From Candidatus Nanoarchaeia archaeon (lineage in GTDB: Archaea; Nanobdellota; Nanobdellia; Woesearchaeales; SM23-78): a stretch of 37,343 bases of DNA. Shown here in pieces: positions 9,621-35,337 of this stretch; within the stretch, counting starts at the first letter, position 1, and each line of letters opens with the position of its first letter. The notes under the pieces are model-generated. The model was given only the letters and a program-made list of their open reading frames with translations. It had not been told where the DNA came from and made no database searches. The DNA lies in the NCBI GenBank assembly GCA_035256305.1, contig DATEYH010000138.1, positions 1 to 37,343 on the forward strand. The letters are read 5' to 3'. Made by a program: the position numbers and the translations under genes.

Positions 9621-9968
9621 GTGTATAATATGATTAACAAAAAAGATGTTGTAAGGATTAACCAGGAGATAGGGGAAACAGGGGAGCTCCAGAACCAAGG
9701 CAGCCTGGACTACGCCCTCTCAACCCTGAAGCACAGGAAAAGCTGGCTCTACGAGCTAGCATACATCTCAAGAAGCCTCCTGGTAGACCATGCCTTTGTG
9801 GACGGCAACAAGAGGACTGCCCTGGCAATAATCCTCACATACCTTGAAGAGAAAAGCCAGGAATACGACAAGGAAAGACTGGTCAAGATAATGCTGCAAA
9901 TATCCAGGAAGAACATAAAAGACGTGAACAAGATAGCGAGGCTGATAAAAAGTGCAATCCTTTACTGA
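9621..9968 (+). CDS. doc: Doc (death-on-curing) / Fic-fold toxin
   Basis: Fic/Doc active-site motif HAFVDGNKRTALA. Start GTG 9621 or ATG 9630. Confidence 0.8.
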   Translation: MYNMINKKDVVRINQEIGETGELQNQGSLDYALSTLKHRKSWLYELAYISRSLLVDHAFVDGNKRTALAIILTYLEEKSQEYDKERLVKIMLQISRKNIKDVNKIARLIKSAILY

Positions 9969-10188
9969 GAAAGCAAAAAAGGTGATAAAGGAAAATCAGG
10001 ACATGTTCAACGTACTCGAAGAGCTTGACAGGACAGGCGCCTACAGGAAGGCATCATACAAGCAAAGAGTCAACTTCACAGTGGACGAGGAGCTGTTTAA
10101 CAAGTTCAGAAGCTACTGCAAGAAGAAAGGAATCAGCATGTCAGCAAGAGTAGAGGAATGCATGAGAAAGCAGCTGGAGAAAGCATAA
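9952..10188 (+). CDS. ribbon-helix-helix (CopG/Arc-like) protein, putative antitoxin of Doc
   Basis: RVNFTVDEELFNKFRSYCKKKGISMSARVEECMRKQL fits strand-helix-helix. Overlaps the Doc stop by 17 nt if the GTG start is used (alternative ATG 10003). Confidence 0.6.
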   Translation: MQSFTEKAKKVIKENQDMFNVLEELDRTGAYRKASYKQRVNFTVDEELFNKFRSYCKKKGISMSARVEECMRKQLEKA

Positions 10189-10326
10189 GAGTTCTTGAAT
10201 TATTTTCGTTTTTTTCCTGTTAATCACGAAAATTAATAATAGCATTATATAAATGAGTGGTTTGACATGGTTATTGACCAAAAAGCTTATATACTAAGCA
10301 TATATATCTATATATGTGATGTATAT

Positions 10327-10554
10327 ATGGTGCAGGCGATGATTAATATAAACGAGAACTCCAACCGCGTATTGAACATAGTCAAAGCCAAGTACGGGCT
10401 GAAAGATAAGTCTCAGGCTATAGACTTAGTTGTGTCTGAGTACGAGGAATCCTTCCTTGAGCCAGAGCTAAAGCCTGACTACAAGAAAAAGCTTGATAAG
10501 ATAATCAAAGGCAAGCACTTGTCCCGAAAGGAGTTTGAGAAAAGAGTGGGTTAG
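10327..10554 (+). CDS. putative antitoxin (small DNA-binding protein) of the RelE-like toxin
   Basis: MVQAMININENSNRVLNIVKAKYGLKDKSQAIDLVVSEY...; overlaps the downstream toxin by 20 nt. AT-rich TATA run ends about 20 nt upstream. The N-terminal 20 codons of the tracked ORF are AT-rich promoter-like sequence. Confidence 0.5.
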   Translation: MVQAMININENSNRVLNIVKAKYGLKDKSQAIDLVVSEYEESFLEPELKPDYKKKLDKIIKGKHLSRKEFEKRVG

Positions 10555-10819
10555 GTTGTACACAGACGAGTACAGCGATAAGATTAGTGATACCCTGGCC
10601 AAGCTGAAGAAGAGGGATCTCAAGCAATACCTAATCGTGCGCAAGAAGATGGACTGGATTCTTGAGAATCCAGGTCATAGCTACAAGTTCTTAAGCCAGG
10701 ACATGAAAGGTCTTAGCCGGATTCATTTAGGGCATTTTGTGCTGGTGTTTTCCATCAATCATAAGAAGAGGTTAGTATCTTTTGAAGATTACGACCACCA
10801 CGACAAGATATACTACTGA
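10535..10819 (+). CDS. RelE/ParE-superfamily toxin
   Basis: 94 aa, basic; ...LKGLSRIHLGHFVLVFSINHKKRLVSFEDYDHHDKIYY resembles the RelE/YafQ C-terminal core; paired with an upstream small ORF. Confidence 0.6.
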   Translation: MRKEWVRLYTDEYSDKISDTLAKLKKRDLKQYLIVRKKMDWILENPGHSYKFLSQDMKGLSRIHLGHFVLVFSINHKKRLVSFEDYDHHDKIYY

Positions 10820-10932
10820 ATAAGCCACTCCTCCTTCACAAAGCTGTCAGGCAATTGTTGCTCAAAGCAGAGAAAACCAGCTCTTCCAGTGATGAGTTAA
10901 ACAAATGAGAAAACTGAACTAAAATATTTTAG

Positions 10933-10975
10933 GGCTTCCACATTAAACTCTTACGAGGAAGGAGGTGGACAGCGG
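10933..10975 (+). repeat. dispersed intergenic repeat, copy A (GGCTTCCACA..CTTACGAGGAAGGAGGTGGACAGCGG)
   Basis: Near-identical to 12875-12917; partial copies at 8113-8135, 12839-12850 and 13948-13972. The ends form an imperfect inverted repeat (GCTTCCAC / GTGGACAGC). Confidence 0.7.
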
Positions 10976-10979
10976 ATAA

Positions 10980-11813
10980 TTATGTTAACCTTTTCCTCTT
11001 AGATTTTTCAGGCTCTGAAAGGTAGCTTTCTTTTGAGGTTATGGGTTTGCCTATTTCTTTCTCAGCATCTTTCCTGGCTTTTCCAGCAACCCTTCCCCCT
11101 CTTCTTGCTGAATCCTGGCATTGTTTGAGCCCTTGCGAGTCTTTTGTTTGAGTAATCTCAGTGGTTACTTTCTCACCAAGCATAGTAAATATTAATTCTA
11201 AATCATTCATATGATCTCTTAAGTTATGCCTTTTCAAGCCTTTGAACTGCTTGTATTCTTCAACAGTCTTTCCAAAAGTAGCCTTGCTAATATCGTTGGT
11301 TAATATCGCGAACTCAACATTCTCATCAACACCCCTGTTCTTCCACTCATCAGTCAGTTCCTGTCTTATAGCGATTCCCCTAACTCTCTTCTCAATCCAC
11401 TCATCAGAATAACCTTTGGCCCGGTAAAGCTCTTTCATTCTCTTCTGGGCTAACTCAGGATCCTGTATTTCCTGCACTCTTTCATAGCCAACCTTTGCAA
11501 GCCAAAGCTTGAAAGGCTCTGCCTTGGGTGATGGGATAGACTGGATAATCCTGAACATATTTTTGGTATTTGCGCAGTCAGTTTCCCTTAGTTTACCATC
11601 TTCTGCTGGTAATTTCAACTGTAAACAAAATGTTAACAGTTGAGGCTCTCGGCTCTTTAAAACGCCCCAATACTGTCTGGGACTAGGGCTATCAGTTAAA
11701 GCTTGCACAATATCAACAACTGAGAAATACCACTCATCATTATGCCAAACCCTTCTGATTTTCTTGTCCTGAAAAACAACCAGTGCCTTGTCTTGACTAA
11801 CATTTTCTGTCAT
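10980..11813 (-). CDS. Bro-N domain protein (phage antirepressor / DinD-like)
   Basis: N-terminus LVVFQDKKIRRVWHNDEWYFSVVDIVQALTDS is the Bro-N pattern; basic C-terminal tail. Confidence 0.7.
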   Translation of the reverse strand: MTENVSQDKALVVFQDKKIRRVWHNDEWYFSVVDIVQALTDSPSPRQYWGVLKSREPQLLTFCLQLKLPAEDGKLRETDCANTKNMFRIIQSIPSPKAEPFKLWLAKVGYERVQEIQDPELAQKRMKELYRAKGYSDEWIEKRVRGIAIRQELTDEWKNRGVDENVEFAILTNDISKATFGKTVEEYKQFKGLKRHNLRDHMNDLELIFTMLGEKVTTEITQTKDSQGLKQCQDSARRGGRVAGKARKDAEKEIGKPITSKESYLSEPEKSKRKRLT

Positions 11814-28022: not shown

Positions 28023-28555
28023 TTAAGAATAAAACAAAAATTCTTTTTTATATTTAATTTTGAAACATAATTTCTTAGAAATAATAAATTAATGATAGCT
28101 GTTCATAGGAATCAACAACCAAGGTTGTTGAGCCAAAAATTCTGAGGAATTTTTGTGCATCATAGTCTTTGCTTCTCAGAGCCAATTCTCTGATTTGATT
28201 GTTAAATGAGAGATTGGACTTATTAGTGGCTGCATGCTGAGCACCTTGTTGCCTTGGTGCGTACACACCAGCTCTATCAACCCGATCTTCTATCGGCGTC
28301 CATGAGCGTCTCTTTTCAAGGATGGCTTCATACTTAGATGCTTTCAGTATTTATCCATGTAAAGCGTAGCTGCCCGGCCTACCCTGTCGGATAACCGGTC
28401 GACCAGAGGCTTCGGGCCCTCGTTCCTCTCGTACTAAAGGTCCCTTCCTTTCAGACACCCAACACTTCCAGTAGATATCAAACAAACTGCCTCGCAGCGT
28501 TCTGAACCCAGCTCACGATCCCTTTTGATAGGTGAACACCCTCACCCTTGGCCGC

Positions 28556-28588
28556 ATACAGTACCTTCTTACTTTCGCAAAAAGGTTA
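28556..28588 (-). other. 33-nt BHB-type mini-intron in 23S domain V (hairpin after GAUGUCGGCU)
   Basis: Outer helix GGCCG/CGGCC, central helix GCAG/CUGU, bulges AAU and AUG, inner helix ACCUU/AAGGU. Removal gives CCGUGCAGAAGCGGCC, the conserved archaeal LSU sequence as I recall it. Confidence 0.6.
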
Positions 28589-28852
28589 TTCTGCACGGCC
28601 AGGATAGGAAGAGCCGACATCTATGTAGCAAACCGCGCCGTCGATAGGAGCTCTCGGGCGCGACAACTCTGTTATCCCCGGAGTAACTTTTCGGTCGGTA
28701 CCGTCCCCCATTCAAGGAGGAACGGCAGTTCGTTAGGCCCAACTTTCGTTTCTGGTATTCTTCTTATTCAAATACCAGTCAGGCTGGCTTTTGCCCTTAC
28801 ACTCAACATCGGATTTCTGACCCGACTGAGCCAACCTTGGGGCGCCACTGAT

Positions 28853-28897
28853 ATAAAGCGAGCATAGACAAGCTTTATCAAGCAATCTATTGCTCAT
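28853..28897 (-). other. 45-nt BHB-type mini-intron in 23S domain V
   Basis: Textbook helix-bulge-helix-bulge-helix: GCCGCUGA/UCAGUGGC, central AAAG/CUUU, two AUA bulges, inner helix UGAGCA-UAGA/UCUAUGCUCG. Removal gives GCUGAAAAGAUAUCAGUGGC. Confidence 0.75.
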
Positions 28898-29233
28898 ATC
28901 TTTTCAGCGGCGTGCCACCCCAGCCAAACTGTCCACCTGCCGGTGTCCAAGTCACAAGGACTTGTGAGCAGCGTAAAACCAGATGAGTAGTGTTACATCG
29001 ACGTCTAAACCTGCACTTGCATGCAAGCCTCAAACAACTCCTACTTACTCTATACACCCGGTCTCACGTTGCAGCAACAGGCTACAGTAAAGTTTCACGG
29101 GGTCTTCGCTTCCCACTGGAAGTCTCTGGTCTTTGCACCAGAACAAAATTTTCAGAGGGTTCCGGTTGGGGACAGTGGAGATCTCGTTACGCCATTCATG
29201 CAGGCCGTCAATCAAACGGCAAGGCATTTCGCT

Positions 29234-30005
29234 CACATCTGTTACTTCCCTTAAAATTTAAGGTACTGACCTTCTCTTTAAGGCGGACAAGCATTTCTAC
29301 TAGTTGCTCAAAAATCTCAAATGATTTTTGGCAACCCCAAAACCACATGGTTTTGATGTCTCCTCACATCGCTATGAGGGTCGGACTATATCTTAACACT
29401 CATCAAAGAGTGTTTTTGGCGTATAGTCTCTGAGGATTCTAGACGCCTTATGACTTTTCGGTTCATCTCAGAAGCAAGTTCAGCTATTTTCTCTAAGCCT
29501 GCTCTTGACAAGTGCTCCTTTTTATTCATAATCCCTAATATTTGTGCAAAGAGTTCAAAGCTATTCTTCTTAGAAGTTTGAAGAGGATTTTCATTTATGA
29601 ACTGAACTATACGGTTCAGGTTGTCTAATCCTCTCACTCGGAACTCTTTCCTATCTCCGTTATTCACAGTTACGCTTCCAAAACCAAAATATGACTTGAT
29701 TCTGTGAAGTACTGCTTCATCGCGTTGATGTTGCACTATCCTTAATTCAGGGAGTACCTGCCATTTTAAGGTCATTTTCTCTAATCTATTAATAGACACA
29801 TGAAAACAACCTTCTCCATCAATGAATCCGACAATCCACTTAGCATCCAGTCTTTCCTGCTGATTATCTGCACCTATCACTTTTTCACCCTGACAACATA
29901 TAAACGTTTTAATTTAAATAGCTCACGTTAATATGTCCAGTGGTAGTGTAGGACTCTCAGACGTCCCAGCATATAGCCAGATTGTTTAAGGCAACTTCTG
30001 TGCTT
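29234..30005 (-). mobile_element. group I intron (772 nt) in 23S domain IV, carrying a LAGLIDADG homing endonuclease ORF
   Basis: Interrupts CUUAAGGU|AGCGAAAUGCC. The 5' exon ends in U, paired as U.G in a 7-bp P1 with internal guide GCCUUAA 13 nt into the intron. The intron ends in G. AAGAUAUAGUCCGACC (the classical S/P7 3' element) follows the ORF, with candidate P7 partner GGACAUAU. Confidence 0.75.
29386..29880 (-). CDS. LAGLIDADG homing endonuclease (single-motif type)
   Basis: KWIVGFIDGEGCFHVSI motif near the N-terminus; 164 aa; GTG start; sits inside the intron and its stop codon lies within the AAGAUAUAGUCC core element. Confidence 0.85.
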   Translation of the reverse strand: MIGADNQQERLDAKWIVGFIDGEGCFHVSINRLEKMTLKWQVLPELRIVQHQRDEAVLHRIKSYFGFGSVTVNNGDRKEFRVRGLDNLNRIVQFINENPLQTSKKNSFELFAQILGIMNKKEHLSRAGLEKIAELASEMNRKVIRRLESSETIRQKHSLMSVKI

Positions 30006-30837
30006 ACCTTAAGAGAGTTATAGTTACTCCCGCCGTTTACCTGTCCTTCGTTCCCTTGGATGGGATTTTCAGATACAGGCACTGGGCAGACGTCACCGAC
30101 TATTCTAGCCCTTACGGGTTGGCAGTCGGTTAAGTTTTTGTTAAACAGTCGGACCTCCTTTGTTACTGTGCCTTACACTCGCATTCTTATGAATACAAGT
30201 GTAGGGACCCCTTAGACCGAAGGCTTGGGGCTAATTTGCCGAATTCCCTCAACCAGATTGTCCCTTCTCGCCGTGGGCTTCTCACCCAGGGGCACCTGTG
30301 CCGGTGCTGGGTATAGACATAAAGGATTTTTCCCTGTTCCCTTTTCAAGGGCTCCGGGTATTAGCTGAACAATACTTAAGTACTGCTGTTCTAAGAGTTG
30401 ACCAGGTTCTCATCGTTACGATACTCCCCTGACCTGCCCTTATTAACAATCCCGACGGGGATTGTCAGCCTAACCAGAAGCGTCAGGAACAAGGCTTGCG
30501 TTACCGCACATACCAATATGGTACAGGAATATTAACCTGTTTCCCTTTCCTCTACTAGCTCAAGTTATGAGCTGAGTTAGGACTAACTTACCCTTGGCTG
30601 ATCTGCATTGCCAAGGAACCCTTGCCCTTTCAGCGACACTGATTCTCACAGTGCTAAGTTCTTACTATTACCAGGATTCTCATTCCTGCAAGATTGACCT
30701 CTCCTCTCGGAGAAGCTTCTGCTCTAGCAGGACGCCTACCTACCGCAACGCTTGCGCGTGCCAGCGGTCTCGGTGACTGATTTAGCCCCGTCCATCTTAG
30801 GCGCTCATAACCTCGAAGAGTAAGCTGTTACGCACTT

Positions 30838-30870
<33 letters not shown>

Positions 30871-32235
30871 CGCTGTCTTTGGTTATGAACAACCTTCACC
30901 CTTTCACACTTAACCAATGCTTAGGGACCTTAACCGCTGTCTGGGTTGTTCCCCTCTCGCGCATCACCCTTACGACGATGCGCCGTCTCCTGAGGTCTAC
31001 AGTGCATGGGACTTTGGAGTTGGACAAAGAACCGACCACTTTCGCGGCCTAAATCCTAAATCCGTAGCTCTACCTCCCAGGCAACCTCGCTCAGGGCTTG
31101 ACTGCAGCCAACTTCGGTAGGAACCAGCTATCGCCGAACTCGATTGGCTTTTTACCCCTACGCTCAAGTTAGAAGAACATTTGTACATAGAACCTCTGCA
31201 GGCCTCCACCCTTCTTTAGAAGGGCTTCACCTTACCCAAGTGTAGTTCGTCCGGCTTCGGGTCTGGTCCGAGTGACTAAAGGCGCTTTCACACCTCTCCC
31301 CTCGCATGCTGCGGGATATTGCTTTCGCTTTGGATGCCCATTGATTAATGGTTATCCTTGCCACTCAGACAAACTCCCTGGCTCGTTATTCTAAACGCAC
31401 GATACACAGCCGAAGCTGCGTATCCCGCTGTATCTACTAGGTTTCAAGTTCTATTTGACTCTCTGTCAAGAGTTCTTTTCAGCTTTCCCTCACGGTACTG
31501 GTTCGCTATCGGACTCAAAACGTGTTTAGGGTTAGGAGTTGATGCCTCCTAGCTTCGCACCTAGTATCCAGTAGGTGCTACTCAAGATACTGCCACGCCT
31601 CCCTGACTCCCTCTACGGGACTATCACCCTCTATGGTACTTCTTTCCAGAAGACTTTGAGTCATCAGGGTAAGGTCTAAAAGACAGTCTTACAAATCCAC
31701 ATCCCATCTCATTTTTCAATGAAAGGTTCAGATTGCCCTTTGCTGCTTTCGCTCTCTGCTAATAACAGCATCCTTAGTTTAGTTTCTCTTCCTGCAGGTA
31801 CTAAGACGTTTCAGTTCCCTGCGTATAGCTAGCCTTTCGGCTTCAAAGCGAAGTCGCATTCAGAAATCCCTGGTTCAACCCCTGCGTGCGGGTCGCCAAG
31901 GCTTTTCGTGGCTTGCCACGTCCTTCTTCGCCGTCTTGAGCCAAGCTATCCTCCTAGTAGAGTATTTTCTCTCAGAACTTAGCAATCATTTCAGAGACTT
32001 ATCTCTGTGTTGCAAAGACCAATAATTTCCTATGAACAGCCTTCATTAAACATGAGTAAATGAATATTGGTCGACATGAAAAAGCATGTCTTCTCGTGTT
32101 CTGAGCTTCTTCACCCAGCAAGTCTTAGTTGCCGAGCTGCTAATAAAAAATTGAATATGAAATGTAAGTGGACTCTGCGACAACAAAAATCGCGAAGCGA
32201 TTTTTGAGTCCTCGAGTCCATCTCACTTCGTTCGA

Positions 32236-32377
32236 TGGACTCTGCGGGAATTGCGTCCTCAGAGTTTATGTAATAAACTCTGATGTTGTATTCGCACCCG
32301 CGGCCCCCACCTCTCTCAAGCAAAAGCTCTTGCCTTTTGCATGCAAGGGTGGTGCTCTACTACTGAGCTAAGAGCCC
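32236..32377 (-). tRNA. tRNA-Ala(UGC) in the 16S-23S spacer, with two introns (29 nt at 37/38, 32313-32341; 41 nt in the T-loop at 59/60, 32250-32290)
   Basis: Acceptor GGGCUCU/AGAGUCC with the G3:U70 Ala identity pair, D arm GCUC/GAGC, anticodon stem CCACC/GGUGG, loop CUUGCA-A, variable GGGCC, T stem GCGGG/CCCGC. T-loop intron flanked by central helix UGCG/CGCA and bulges AAU/AUU. The mature T-loop UGCGAAU and D-loop AGUAGUA are atypical. Confidence 0.75.
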
Positions 32378-33224
32378 ATGCCGGGGGTATAATCCCCTTT
32401 TGCTCCTGTGAATAGCAAAAAAATAATGTGGTAGGAGAAGAACTAGCCTAACAAGATTCTAATATTTATATAAAAAATTATAGGAGGTGATCCCACCGCA
32501 GGTTCCCCTACGGTGACCTTGTGACGACTTAACCCATCTCACTGAACTCAGGTTCAACACAACCAAGAAAGCTGTGTTTCACCTAAACCCTGCTCGATTG
32601 GTTTGACGGGCGGTGTGTGCAAGAGACAGGGACATATTCACCGGACTATGCTAAAATCCGATTACTAGGGATTCCATCGTCACGAGGCTGAGTTACAAGC
32701 CTCGATCTGAACTAAGATATGGTTTAGAGGTTTAGCTCCCCCTTTCGGGGTGGCATCCCATTGTCCATACCATTGTTGCGCGCGTGTAGCCTAGAGCATT
32801 CGGAGCATACAGACCTACCGTAGCCTGCACCTTCCTCCCTGTTTCCAGGGCAGTCCCCTCAAAGTGCTCAATCCATCCGTGGATGTTGTTAGCAATAGAG
32901 GGTACAGGTCTCGCTCGTTGCCAGACTTAACTGGACGCTTCACAGCACGAGCTGGCGACGGCCATGCACTACCTCTCGGCTTGTCAGGTAATGTCTTCAG
33001 CATGACCTTCATTCTGCCGTCGGCTCTAGTGAGGTTCTCTGCGTTGAGTTAGATTGAACCGCACGCCGCACCCCTTGTGGTGTCTCCCCGCCAATTCCTT
33101 AAAGTTTCAGCCTTGCGACCGTACTTCCCTGGTGGCGAGCTTAACGACTTCTCTTCGACACTGCGCATCCTCGTGGGGTGCGCAATACCTTGCTCGCAGC
33201 GTTTACAGCTAGGACTACTCGGGT

Positions 33225-33368
33225 AATTAGCACCTTTATTTCCATAACGTATCAGAATTTGCAATGGATTGTAGTAATTTTTTCTTGGCAAAAACAAATC
33301 GTTCAGTGGGTTTTAACGAAGTTAAAATCCCACATTGCATTTTTTGGTACAGCTTTGATTAAAGGTGT
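33225..33368 (-). other. 144-nt BHB-type intron in 16S, inside the GGAUUAGAUACCC block
   Basis: Central helix UUAG/CUAA, bulges AUA and UUA, 8-bp inner helix CACCUUUA/UAAAGGUG. Cutting after the 2nd bulge nt restores GGAUUAGAU|ACCCGAGUAGUCC. Contains a 12-bp UUCG-capped hairpin. Confidence 0.8.
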
Positions 33369-33852
33369 ATCTAATCCGTTTTGCTCCCCTAGCTTTCGTT
33401 CCTCACAGTCGGACCCGTCCTGGCCAGATGCCTTCGCCATTGGTAGTCCTCCCTGGATTAACCCATTTTACCGGTACCCAAGGAATACTTCTGACCTCTT
33501 CCGGTCCCGAGTCTTGTAGTGTCCTCTGCACGCCGACAGGTTAAGCCTGCCGATTTCACAAAGGATTTTCAAGACCTGCTACGAACGCTTTAGACCCAAT
33601 AATCGTGATGACCACTTGGGGCGCTGGGGTTACCGCGGCGGCTGGCACCAGTCTTGCCCACCCCTTATTCGCCAAGCTTTTTACACATGGCAAAAGCCTA
33701 TCAATGATAAGCACTTGGGATCCCCTTCTCACACTTGCGTGCATTGGAAAGGTTTCGCGCCTGCTGCACCCCGTGGGGCTGGGACCAGTATCTCAGTGTC
33801 CCTCTCCGGGCTCCCACTCTCATGGCCCGTACGGATCCTAGGTTTGGTGGTC

Positions 33853-33896
33853 TTGTAAGCGCCAGCTTACAACCCAAAAGGGTTAGCTTTTGCGTG
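33853..33896 (-). other. 44-nt BHB-type mini-intron in 16S (helix equivalent to E. coli ~255-270)
   Basis: Outer helix UUGGCGGU/ACCACCAA, central helix GUAA/UUAC, bulges UGC and AAG. Removal gives UUGGCGGUGUAAUGGACCACCAA, colinear with the conserved UUGGUGGGGUAACGGCCCACCAA. Confidence 0.65.
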
Positions 33897-34391
33897 CATT
33901 ACACCGCCAACAGCCTAATCCGCCGCCAGTCCATCCTATGGCACGAGTTTAAGGAAGAGCCCATTCCAGGGCTTGTTCCCTATCAGGTATTACCCTCACT
34001 TTCGCGAAGCTATCCCCGACCATAGGGCAGGTTACCGACGTGTTACTGAGCCTTTCGCCTCCATTGCTGGATGACTTGCATGGCTTAATCGGATCCCAAT
34101 AGCAGCAATCTCCCGCAGGATCAACGGGAACTGATTATTTGATTATTCGGCTAAAACTTTAATGAAACTTTATTAGAATTCTGCTAAACAGGATTCTTTC
34201 TCCTACCAGTATACTTGAATAGCTAGTTCAAGCATGAAACAAACTTTTCGAGTTATGCTGATGCAAAAGATGCTTAATCCAGACTTTCGTCGAGATGTTT
34301 TTAATTCTGCATAACTATGGCGCTGATCGCTTGTAGAGAATCAGTGTTTAGATCCTCGCCTGAAAATGCGTGTTTTCAGAGAGTTATAGGG

Positions 34392-34542: not shown

Positions 34543-35337
34543 ATGTCAAGAATCGGCTTGGTGCTTAGCGGAGGAGGAGTGAACGGTCTGGCTCATATCG
34601 GCGCCTTGAAAGTGCTGGATAAGCTGGGTGTGAAATTCAGCGCAATAGCTGGCTGCAGCATGGGCAGCATTATCGGGGCATGTTACGCTGCTGGCAGAAC
34701 GCCTCAGGAGATAGAAGATTTTATTTTAAAGTACAAGCTGGTTCAGCTCCTGGATTTATCCATTTACGCTATTTCAAAGCTCGGCATTACAAAAACAAAC
34801 AAGCTGAAGAAGGCACTGGATGATTTCATGGGTGTGAACAAGTTTGAGGAGCTGAAAATTCCGATGTATATCAATGCGACTGACCTTAGCAAGGGCAAGG
34901 AAGTGGTTTTCTGCTCAGGAGAACTCTTCAAAGCCATACGTGCTAGCATTGCCATTCCAGGAGTGTTTGCTCCGCCCATCATCCACAAAGACTATTATGT
35001 CGACGGAGGCGTATTAGACAATGTCCCATTCTCCATCCTGCCGAGCCAGATAAAAAAGTACATTATTATCGACGCAGTGCCTTATGAGCCTCTGAAAACC
35101 AGTAAGAAGCCGAGCTTGGTAAAGCTCCTGGAGACCAGCGGCAGGGCAGCCATGGATGAGATTATAAGGTTACGCCTGAAAGACATTCCTGACAAGAATT
35201 ATGTGCTGGTTAAGCCGCGGATTCCGGAATACAAGTTTATAATTCACAGGGAGAAGTCTTTGGAAATAATAAGGAGCGGCGAGCTTGCTACGCAAAGGAA
35301 GATTCCGGAGATTAAGCATAAATTTAAAGTTAAATAA
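34543..35337 (+). CDS. patatin-like phospholipase
   Basis: GLVLSGGGVNGLAHIG (oxyanion GGG), GCSMGS (GxSxG nucleophile), DGGVLDNVP (catalytic Asp). Confidence 0.85.
   Translation: MSRIGLVLSGGGVNGLAHIGALKVLDKLGVKFSAIAGCSMGSIIGACYAAGRTPQEIEDFILKYKLVQLLDLSIYAISKLGITKTNKLKKALDDFMGVNKFEELKIPMYINATDLSKGKEVVFCSGELFKAIRASIAIPGVFAPPIIHKDYYVDGGVLDNVPFSILPSQIKKYIIIDAVPYEPLKTSKKPSLVKLLETSGRAAMDEIIRLRLKDIPDKNYVLVKPRIPEYKFIIHREKSLEIIRSGELATQRKIPEIKHKFKVK

Follow-up and report, generated by a model that had tools for sequence, protein, structure and literature searches.

A predicted bulge-helix-bulge intron in the 790 loop of a Woesearchaeales-like 16S rRNA gene, at a site occupied in many archaea

Bulge-helix-bulge (BHB) introns in archaeal 16S rRNA genes have been described from Thermoproteales, Desulfurococcales and Aigarchaeota, where they occupy 13 loci, most of them in Thermoproteales (374, 548, 722, 781, 803, 901, 908, 919, 978, 1093, 1205, 1213 and 1391; Jay & Inskeep 2015, PMC4496867). 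Group I introns, with LAGLIDADG genes, are known in the rRNA genes of Woese-, Pace- and Micrarchaeota (Nawrocki, Jones & Eddy 2018, PMC6125680), and the same paper mentions BHB introns beside them in DPANN rRNA, with sites not catalogued. Intron-containing 16S genes of DPANN archaea have also been mentioned in passing in a paper which points out that divergent or interrupted primer sites hide organisms from amplicon surveys and that pipelines strip such inserts (PMC7906910). In 2022, 16S insertions were described as known only from Cren-, Aig- and Micrarchaeota, with their splicing left open (PMC8784108); that study includes ARM-1, with a 522-bp insert at position 1093, and says that it is not known whether this insert is spliced. 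Here we report on a 37,343-nucleotide (nt) contig stretch of a Candidatus Nanoarchaeia archaeon (DATEYH010000138.1, hereafter the window), in which the 16S rRNA gene is interrupted by 144 nt at 33225..33368. This interruption is very probably a BHB intron without an open reading frame (ORF), which lies in the 790 loop (helix h24) and would be excised with religation of the exons.

The window was aligned to the archaeal small-subunit covariance model (Rfam SSU_rRNA_archaea, RF01959), a check proposed with the original prediction of this intron. The 16S gene occupies 34131..32482 on the minus strand, 1650 nt unspliced against a 1478-position model (1366.8 bits, model positions 1-1478). Directly 3' of GGAUUAGAUA, 145 nt are placed opposite a single model position, which makes a net insertion of 144 nt. 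Both this alignment and the cuts of the BHB scan described below agree to the base with the coordinates that had been predicted. The insertion falls between U793 (33369) and A794 (33224), that is, GGAUUAGAU/ACCC, in an E. coli numbering that we take from where primers 785F and 806R conventionally map. Written as RNA, this stretch is ...AACGGA UUAG AU/A CACCUUUA ...intron... UAAAGGUG CUAA UU/A CCCGAGUAG, where the slashes mark the predicted cuts. In-silico excision gives GGAUUAGAUACCCGAG and restores GGAUUAGAUACCC, so that cutting after the second bulge nucleotide does recover the consensus, as had been proposed; the 16S is then 1506 nt long, and about 1462 nt when a second, 44-nt intron is excised as well. 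In the window the boundary is ambiguous by 1 nt. The first intron base of a homolog in a close relative, L002, is U, which removes this ambiguity and fixes the cuts at GAU/ and UU/ACCC, the canonical BHB positions. Inspection of the ORFs bears out that none is confined to the 144 nt; the sole open frame across the intron is antisense and is part of a spurious 113-aa ORF (33178..33519) running through the rRNA exons. The parts of the element are the following.

33225..33368 (RNA sense 33368 to 33225), minus strand: intron, 144 nt, from the cmscan insertion, the BHB scanner and in-silico splicing.
33371..33374, minus strand: 5' strand of the central 4-bp helix, UUAG, exon nucleotides 788-791 of the 790 loop, read from the sequence.
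33227..33230, minus strand: 3' strand of the central 4-bp helix, CUAA, at the 3' end of the intron, read from the sequence and found by the BHB scanner.
33368..33370, minus strand: 5' bulge A-U/A, predicted cleavage 33369/33368, from the BHB scanner.
33224..33226, minus strand: 3' bulge U-U/A, predicted cleavage 33225/33224, from the BHB scanner.
33360..33367, minus strand: 5' strand of the inner helix, CACCUUUA, eight contiguous pairs with 33231..33238, from folding, scanner and covariation.
33231..33238, minus strand: 3' strand of the inner helix, UAAAGGUG, from folding, scanner and covariation.
33376..33378, minus strand: 5' strand of the outer helix, CGG of native h24 (784-786), from the Rfam consensus structure, RNAalifold and covariation.
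33220..33222, minus strand: 3' strand of the outer helix, CCG (796-798), from the Rfam consensus structure, RNAalifold and covariation.
33306..33333, minus strand: internal hairpin, its 5+7 bp interrupted by a bulged A and its loop UUC, from folding and from compensatory changes in the window-type subfamily.
33242..33246, minus strand: UAUGG motif, starting 22 nt from the 3' end of the intron.

An explicit geometric scanner recognises a single BHB where the insertion begins and ends, which would be cut after 33369 and after 33225. Together with the sequence itself, it confirms the structure that had been read by eye: a central helix of UUAG with CUAA, bulges AUA and UUA, and an 8-bp inner helix. 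Folding and RNAalifold indicate that the inner helix can be extended to about 11 bp. The intron with its flanks folds better than 200 of 200 shuffles (z = -3.8). Since the 5' strand of the central helix is exon sequence, UUAG is invariant among introns at this site. The predicted 12-bp UUCG hairpin stands in part: a hairpin is there, and so are the letters UUCG, whereas the structure (33333..33306, GUGGG-A-UUUUAAC UUC GUUAAAA-CCCAC) has 5+7 bp separated by a bulged A. It is not a C(UUCG)G tetraloop, the loop being a UUC triloop closed by C-G.

The 3' end of such an intron must pair with exon UUAG, and the pattern CTAANNACCCNNGTAGTCC, which an intron-less 16S gene cannot match, was chosen on this basis to scan one genome per GTDB species. 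At least 120 loci matched. At least 89 of these are archaeal 16S genes with an insert of 23-765 nt exactly between GGATTAGAT and ACCC, and with the window and its relatives added there are 91 distinct introns. The other 31 listed loci are L036, which shows the 3' junction only, and about 30 matches without rRNA context; the latter are compatible with chance, since 15 specified bases should match about 1,100 times in 596 Gb. L036 is a Caldarchaeum contig that starts inside a long intron ending at the same 793/794 junction. When the record labels of the at least 89 loci are tallied by hand, the matches listed include Woesearchaeota (31 loci), Micrarchaeota (10, plus 1 Bilamarchaeaceae), Aenigmatarchaeota (8), Nanoarchaeota, Nanoarchaeia or Nanobdellati (8), Pacearchaeota (2), Parvarchaeota (2), the Asgard archaea Hermodarchaeum and Borrarchaeum (2), Nitrososphaerota (1), unclassified archaea (10), "uncultured Methanosarcinales" (12), "Aminicenantes" (1) and "Euryarchaeota archaeon SM23-78" (1). 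Under the labels "uncultured Methanosarcinales" and "Aminicenantes bacterium", L009, L022, L023, L030, L032, L033, L035, L051, L084, L109, L113, L125 and L073 have Woesearchaeota-like 16S exons with an intron at the same site. These labels are probably binning or labelling artefacts.

The 5' boundary and the inner helix lie outside the scan pattern. For covariation, 88 distinct introns were placed in fixed-register constructs. Each construct joined the end of exon 1 (12 nt) and the start of the intron (9 nt), through an artificial GAAA linker, to the end of the intron (14 nt) and the start of exon 2 (9 nt), which gives a gap-free alignment. Of the four inner pairs that adjoin the bulges, the one at the 5' bulge forms in all 88 sequences (100%) and the next three in 97, 97 and 93%; each position shows 4-6 pair types. 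The covariation score of the whole structure is 0.548, compared with 0.131 for shuffles, none of 500 reaching 0.548, and it falls to 0.165 or less when the partners are slid by 1-3 columns. The third base of the 5' bulge is A in 69 homologs, U in 15 and C in 7, and the first two bases of the 3' bulge are UU in 31, AU in 23 and AA in 19, with others besides; bulge bases that vary so freely behave as unpaired bases should. Pairing of the inner helix in 88 independent same-site inserts excludes a chance origin of the BHB.

The close relatives of the host provide evidence of a different kind. They were retrieved through contigs encoding close homologs of the neighbouring patatin gene, next to which the rRNA operon is kept; rRNA-operon synteny is lost beyond the P0014 lineage, and patatin-based prevalence therefore covers the four lineages that can be scored. 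L002 and L003 (patatin identity 68%) carry a 150-nt homolog of the window intron. L005 and L007 (SM23-78) carry a 113-nt intron unrelated to it in sequence, with an inner helix of CGAG and CUCG. In L006 and L008, whose patatin protein is identical to that of L005 and L007, the site is uninterrupted, GGATTAGATACCCGAG, as it is in L142 and L143 (patatin identity 54%). Eight metagenomic loci were retrieved with an exon 2 signature specific to the clade. Of these, L134 and L135 have an empty site, L129 has an L005-type intron, L130, L132 and L133 have an L002-type intron, L131 has a third, unrelated intron of 121 nt, and L136 has a window-type intron of 151 nt. Thus three mutually unalignable intron families, and empty sites, are found among hosts with 16S exon identities of 91-98%, and the empty-site alleles (L006, L008, L134, L135, L142 and L143) show exactly the predicted junction.

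The introns also diverge fast: the window and L002 share 97.6% identity in the exons, compared with 68.7% in the intron. In L136 exons and intron point to different relatives. Its exons are 94.3% identical to those of L005 and 92.0% to those of the window, while its intron is 69-76% identical to the window/L002 type as against 41% to the L005 intron. Judged from these comparisons and from the endonuclease-bearing introns described below, the pattern of apparent gain, loss and exchange is the signature of a homing site, of which the window element would be an ORF-less occupant. In Caldiarchaeum, intron-containing and intron-less small-subunit genes have been found within one ribotype (PMC3082918), which is a published precedent for such turnover. 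In L005-L008, further short inserts are present at the ~908-911 site (GGCTGAAAC/.../TTTAAGGAATTGG), differing in sequence between L005/L007 and L006/L008, and another insert lies about 200 nt downstream; the window has neither. The clade appears to shuffle several mini-introns.

These comparisons bear on two other explanations. Some archaea carry large rRNA expansion segments, and the 144 nt could in principle be such a segment, retained in the mature 16S. However, the site is a universally conserved functional loop and not a variable region; presence is polymorphic among hosts with 91-98% identical exons, with exact BHB boundaries; unrelated sequences occupy the same site; versions with homing endonucleases are present there; and covariation keeps the cleavage motif rather than an extension of h24. 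A retained expansion segment is already disfavoured, and we consider it very improbable. An assembly artefact or a dead operon copy has to be considered for the simple reason that the window is a metagenomic assembly. A sequence identical to the window is present on contig L001 (ENA ERZ4902897, 12.4 kb), which may share the window's source, but homologous introns occur in many unrelated assemblies and both rRNAs of the operon are full length against Rfam. Moreover, DPANN genomes usually carry a single rRNA operon. An artefact or dead copy is extremely improbable.

The 144-nt intron encodes no homing endonuclease. Among longer introns at the same site elsewhere, all five that were tested encode LAGLIDADG_3 (E = 1e-10 to 2e-20, Pfam). 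A self-splicing group I or group II intron could be suspected here, as group I introns occur in DPANN rRNA genes (PMC6125680) and the 23S gene of the same operon contains a probable one (RF00028, 31.3 bits). But an Rfam scan of the 144 nt gives no match to RF00028 or any other family at E <= 1. The intron ends in U and its homologs in UU, AU, AA and others, while a group I intron requires a terminal G, and an element of 144 nt, with homologs as small as 23 nt, leaves no room for a catalytic core. We attach next to no probability to self-splicing. The core of the original prediction, an ORF-less BHB intron between U793 and A794, is thus supported by geometry, covariation among 88 introns, empty-site alleles, endonuclease-bearing versions and fast intron divergence.

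With a BHB intron, splicing would proceed as follows. In the precursor, the intron-terminal CUAA would pair with the loop nucleotides U788-G791, and the two intron ends, CACCUUUA and UAAAGGUG, with each other. Both pairings, with the native h24 stem, would present two 3-nt bulges 4 bp apart. We infer that the tRNA-splicing endonuclease EndA would then cleave after the second base of each bulge (AU/A and UU/A) and that an RtcB-type ligase would join U793 to A794, restoring the consensus loop, and would probably circularise the intron. As for mobility, long versions with LAGLIDADG endonucleases would home to the site, while short ORF-less ones would be inherited, lost and occasionally exchanged between related hosts. 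The EndA proteins known from DPANN archaea are of several architectures, and most have a loop that goes with greater disruption of tRNA genes (PMC5829648).

The position of the intron makes its removal important. A790 is in contact with P-site tRNA, C795 is positioned at the E site, and the P/E gate is made up of the 790 loop and G1338/A1339 (PMC2709574). The 790 loop is also a binding site for the IF3 C-terminal domain and a part of bridge B2b (PMC3130014). Formation of the BHB would lock U788-G791 in a helix with intron bases and leave 144 nt protruding at the subunit interface. Given these roles, the insert is hard to reconcile with a working subunit. The P/E-site and B2b nucleotides would be sequestered before splicing, and we strongly infer that only the spliced 16S is functional.

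Characterised archaeal rRNA BHB introns have their exons ligated and are themselves circularised. A variant in which the intron is excised at the BHB but the halves are not religated, so that a fragmented 16S is held by base pairing and proteins as with bacterial intervening sequences, nevertheless has to be weighed, because nothing in the data separates ligation from non-ligation: L134 and L135, two RNA-derived sequences, run through the site without a break but may come from intron-free genes. Apart from the established precedent, a nick between U793 and A794 would fall within the P/E gate and bridge B2b, and the exact restoration of the universal sequence is a prediction of ligation. We regard non-ligation as highly unlikely.

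L134 (OBAT01047007.1) and L135 (OBEP011351381.1) call for further comment. L135 is within the full-length small-subunit collection of Karst et al., obtained from RNA (PMC12203549); L134 was assigned to it by record format. Both are without inserts at all four polymorphic 16S sites, so that neither of two RNA-derived sequences has any insert, compared with seven of eight DNA lineages that have at least one. This contrast is only suggestive, since L142, a DNA allele free of introns, falls within the clade of L134 and L135 when a distance tree is built from exons only. For the same reason their use as proof of splicing was dropped. The Karst et al. records in the metagenome contig collection can serve as mature-rRNA references for intron questions; the whole set (ENA GCA_900214305) comprises about 61,000 archaeal rRNAs, with many Woesearchaeales among them.

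Several observations weigh against excision and religation of a BHB intron. First, the outer helix is not ideal. A787 faces C795 ahead of the 3-bp stem of CGG and CCG, and the BHB is slightly relaxed on its outer side by this mismatch. Second, the minimum-energy fold favours a 6-bp central helix (GAUUAG with CUAAUU) with the 3' bulge closed, and RNAalifold does not predict the 4-bp central helix; extension of the central helix over an open 3' bulge is a usual habit of energy models. Third, the central helix and the length of the 3' bulge were imposed by the scan pattern, and their recurrence among the matches is not independent evidence. Fourth, the spliced junction in the exon context of the window itself has 0 matches in the metagenome collection, and EndA and RtcB are absent from the 34 ORFs of the 37-kb window that were scanned against Pfam.

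The ORF-less introns at this site share some features beyond the BHB. Among 66 mid-size introns, 23 have [UA]AUG[AG] at a distance of 21-23 nt from their 3' ends, across otherwise unalignable families, and exon-like GGAAUUAG (GGA(N)WUUAR) is found at intron positions 20-38 in 14 of 66, with 1.4 expected from shuffles. The subfamily of the window has an invariant AAAGCUGKACCAAAA stretch and a covarying internal hairpin (alignment columns 59-86). These motifs and structures hint at an RNA role of their own. The ORF-less introns may not simply be decaying remnants but be kept as structured RNAs, either as stable circular RNAs or as a maturation checkpoint that masks the P/E-gate and B2b nucleotides of the 790 loop until late subunit assembly, though we consider this unlikely. 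If true, it would be a widespread feature of archaeal ribosome biogenesis, undescribed as far as we could find, given that the site is spread over DPANN, Asgard, Nitrososphaerota and Aigarchaeota genomes. A box C/D sRNA (small RNA) or K-turn in the intron was also considered and rejected, there being no C box (no UGAUGA) and no Rfam match; AUGAUGA in some homologs is the complement of the inner-helix strand.

The 144-nt intron is one of six intervening sequences in the 16S, tRNA-Ala and 23S genes of this operon. The others were found by comparison with L002, a near insertion-free reference, and by reading the spacer by eye. Four are of BHB type and the fifth is a probable group I intron. The 23S gene lies at 31977..28202 on the minus strand, 3776 nt against a 2987-position model (Rfam).

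33853..33896, minus strand: 44-nt 16S insert, GGU [GUAA] UG/C ... [UUAC] AA/G ACCACC, in the GUAAYGG hairpin loop at Rfam model position 246/247.
32236-32377, minus strand: spacer tRNA-Ala(UGC) with two introns, found by eye and by ARAGORN after in-silico splicing.
32313..32341, minus strand: 29-nt tRNA-Ala intron at the canonical 37/38 position; L002 lacks it.
about 32250..32290, minus strand: about 41-nt tRNA-Ala T-loop intron, [UGCG] AA/U ... [CGCA] AU/U.
28556..28588, minus strand: 33-nt 23S insert, GCAG with CUGU, bulges AA/U and AU/G, native stem of GGCCG and CGGCC.
29234..30005, minus strand: 772-nt 23S insert following U1931 (in our numbering), with a LAGLIDADG_1 gene at 29386..29880 (E = 1.6e-25).

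Removal of the 44-nt insert leaves the consensus loop GUAAUGG; the BHB cutting rule is obeyed and the inner helix is relaxed. All close relatives have an insert there, 12 other sequences have an empty site, and the site is differently occupied in L131 (49 nt, a perfect BHB with an 8-bp inner helix) and L009 (46 nt). It was at first read as a fixed, retained expansion segment, which was dropped after the empty and differently occupied alleles and the BHB-rule junction had been found; a second mini-intron is more likely. The unspliced spacer tRNA was missed by ARAGORN and by Rfam at the gathering threshold. When both introns are removed in silico, ARAGORN calls a tRNA-Ala whose acceptor stem has G3-U70; the tRNA-Ala of L002 carries a different T-loop intron. 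The 33-nt 23S insert, which L002 lacks, reads GGCCG U [GCAG] AA/U A ACCUU...AAGGU A [CUGU] AU/G CGGCC, lies in a hairpin loop downstream of the peptidyl-transferase region and owes its relaxed geometry to an extra U and an A-A mismatch. The 772-nt insert, also missing from L002, follows an exon-terminal U and has G as its last base, and a sub-threshold RF00028 match covers 29362-29561 (31.3 bits, E = 3.9e-5). It is probably a group I intron at LSU/1931, the commonest archaeal group I site (PMC6125680). The four BHB-type inserts obey the cutting rule of the 144-nt intron, L002 lacks some of them, and they were counted in favour of the BHB reading of that intron. A BHB in the 16S and 23S processing stems was also looked for, as a sign of EndA action, but the geometric scan does not discriminate: it gave 14 and 11 matches, compared with 8.9 and 10.9 in shuffled flanks.

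The intron lies under the primer sites of 806R, 785F/805R, Ab779F and Ab789F. In silico, 806R and 805R match the spliced sequence with 0 mismatches. The original prediction had called for this check and held that the intron would defeat 515F/806R surveys. For 806R the match drops from 20/20 in the spliced sequence to 16/20 in genomic DNA, so the primer is indeed weakened, but not necessarily defeated, and 515F is unaffected. On the exon 1-intron junction 806R has 4 mismatches, all in its 5' half, and 9 perfect 3' bases; 785R/805R has 3 mismatches there and 11 perfect 3' bases. On the exon 2 side 806R has 4 mismatches, which include the two 3'-terminal bases. The reverse primer extends away from the intron (the 3' end of 806R is in exon 1), and a polymerase chain reaction at low stringency might therefore still amplify. 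Amplification should be strongly biased and not necessarily abolished. That at least 89 genomes at species level, the majority of them Woese-, Micr-, Aenigm-, Pace- and "Nano"-archaeota, carry an insert at this exact primer position provides a concrete mechanism for under-detection of DPANN archaea in V4 and V3-V4 surveys. Primer-site introns also explain the better recovery of DPANN from RNA-based full-length data (PMC12203549).

The host is, on sequence grounds, a DPANN, Woesearchaeales-like archaeon. Its 16S clusters with SM23-78 and Woesearchaeota-labelled genomes in the exon-only distance tree, and the window genes are archaeal (Kae1/TsaD, NFACT, ribosomal proteins L1, L10/P0 and P1, and a DEAD-box helicase; Pfam). 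Two neighbouring regions deserve mention.

34543-35337, plus strand: patatin-like phospholipase gene adjoining the 16S gene, with named homologs in Woesearchaeota, "Nanoarchaeota", "Euryarchaeota archaeon SM23-78" and Patescibacteria.
9621-11813: ORF with a Fic/DOC domain, weak match to DUF2683 and ORF with a Bro-N domain, between the DEAD-box helicase and an NmrA-like gene.

The best named homologs of the patatin-like protein (about 54% identity) are in Patescibacteria as well as DPANN archaea, which suggests gene exchange between these ultra-small organisms. The Fic/DOC, DUF2683 and Bro-N cluster may be a small mobile or viral remnant.

How does this intron compare with known systems? It has every testable defining feature of a BHB intron, and does not fit a group I intron, a retained segment or a box C/D RNA. 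Like the 16S introns of PMC4496867, it has a BHB at its junctions and sits in a conserved loop that doubles as a "universal" primer site; in both cases long LAGLIDADG versions occur beside short ORF-less or hairpin ones, and presence varies among close relatives. In contrast, the host here is a DPANN archaeon, AT-rich and mesophile-like; the ORF-less introns also group into structured families that are conserved; and U793/A794 is not among the 13 catalogued loci. The primer table of PMC4496867 assigns Ab789F and 806R only to locus 803, and, judged by this table, locus "781" appears to be a different site from 793/794, although it may be mis-numbered; a Caldarchaeum genome does carry a 793/794 intron (L036), which weighs on whether "781" is distinct. 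A search of the open-access literature found no description of the 793/794 site in DPANN archaea, which is not proof that none exists.

Like the pre-tRNA introns and rRNA processing stems cut by EndA, the element would be cut at the second/third base of 3-nt bulges 4 bp apart, and the spacer tRNA-Ala of the same operon has two introns of this kind. Host RNA and size differ from those of pre-tRNA introns, and here the 5' strand of the central helix consists of functional 790-loop nucleotides. Group I introns share its lineages and even its genes, but the 144-nt element lacks a group I core and a terminal G and is too short. The 16S insertions of the candidate phyla radiation (CPR) have mechanisms that are different or unknown. 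As with those of CPR/Patescibacteria and Micrarchaeota (ARMAN, ARM-1), organisms carrying the intron tend to be hidden from amplicon surveys; unlike them, it lies at another site, and the BHB rule predicts its junction explicitly. What makes the case valuable is how widely the site is used, its position beneath the primers in commonest use, the structure that the ORF-less families conserve, and an operon interrupted six times, which would be a compact system for testing the substrate range of EndA in DPANN archaea. The functional heart of the small subunit would tolerate a mobile element as long as it is removed. In kind and mechanism the intron appears classical; its site appears to be a major homing site, widely used yet absent from the 13-locus catalogue of PMC4496867.

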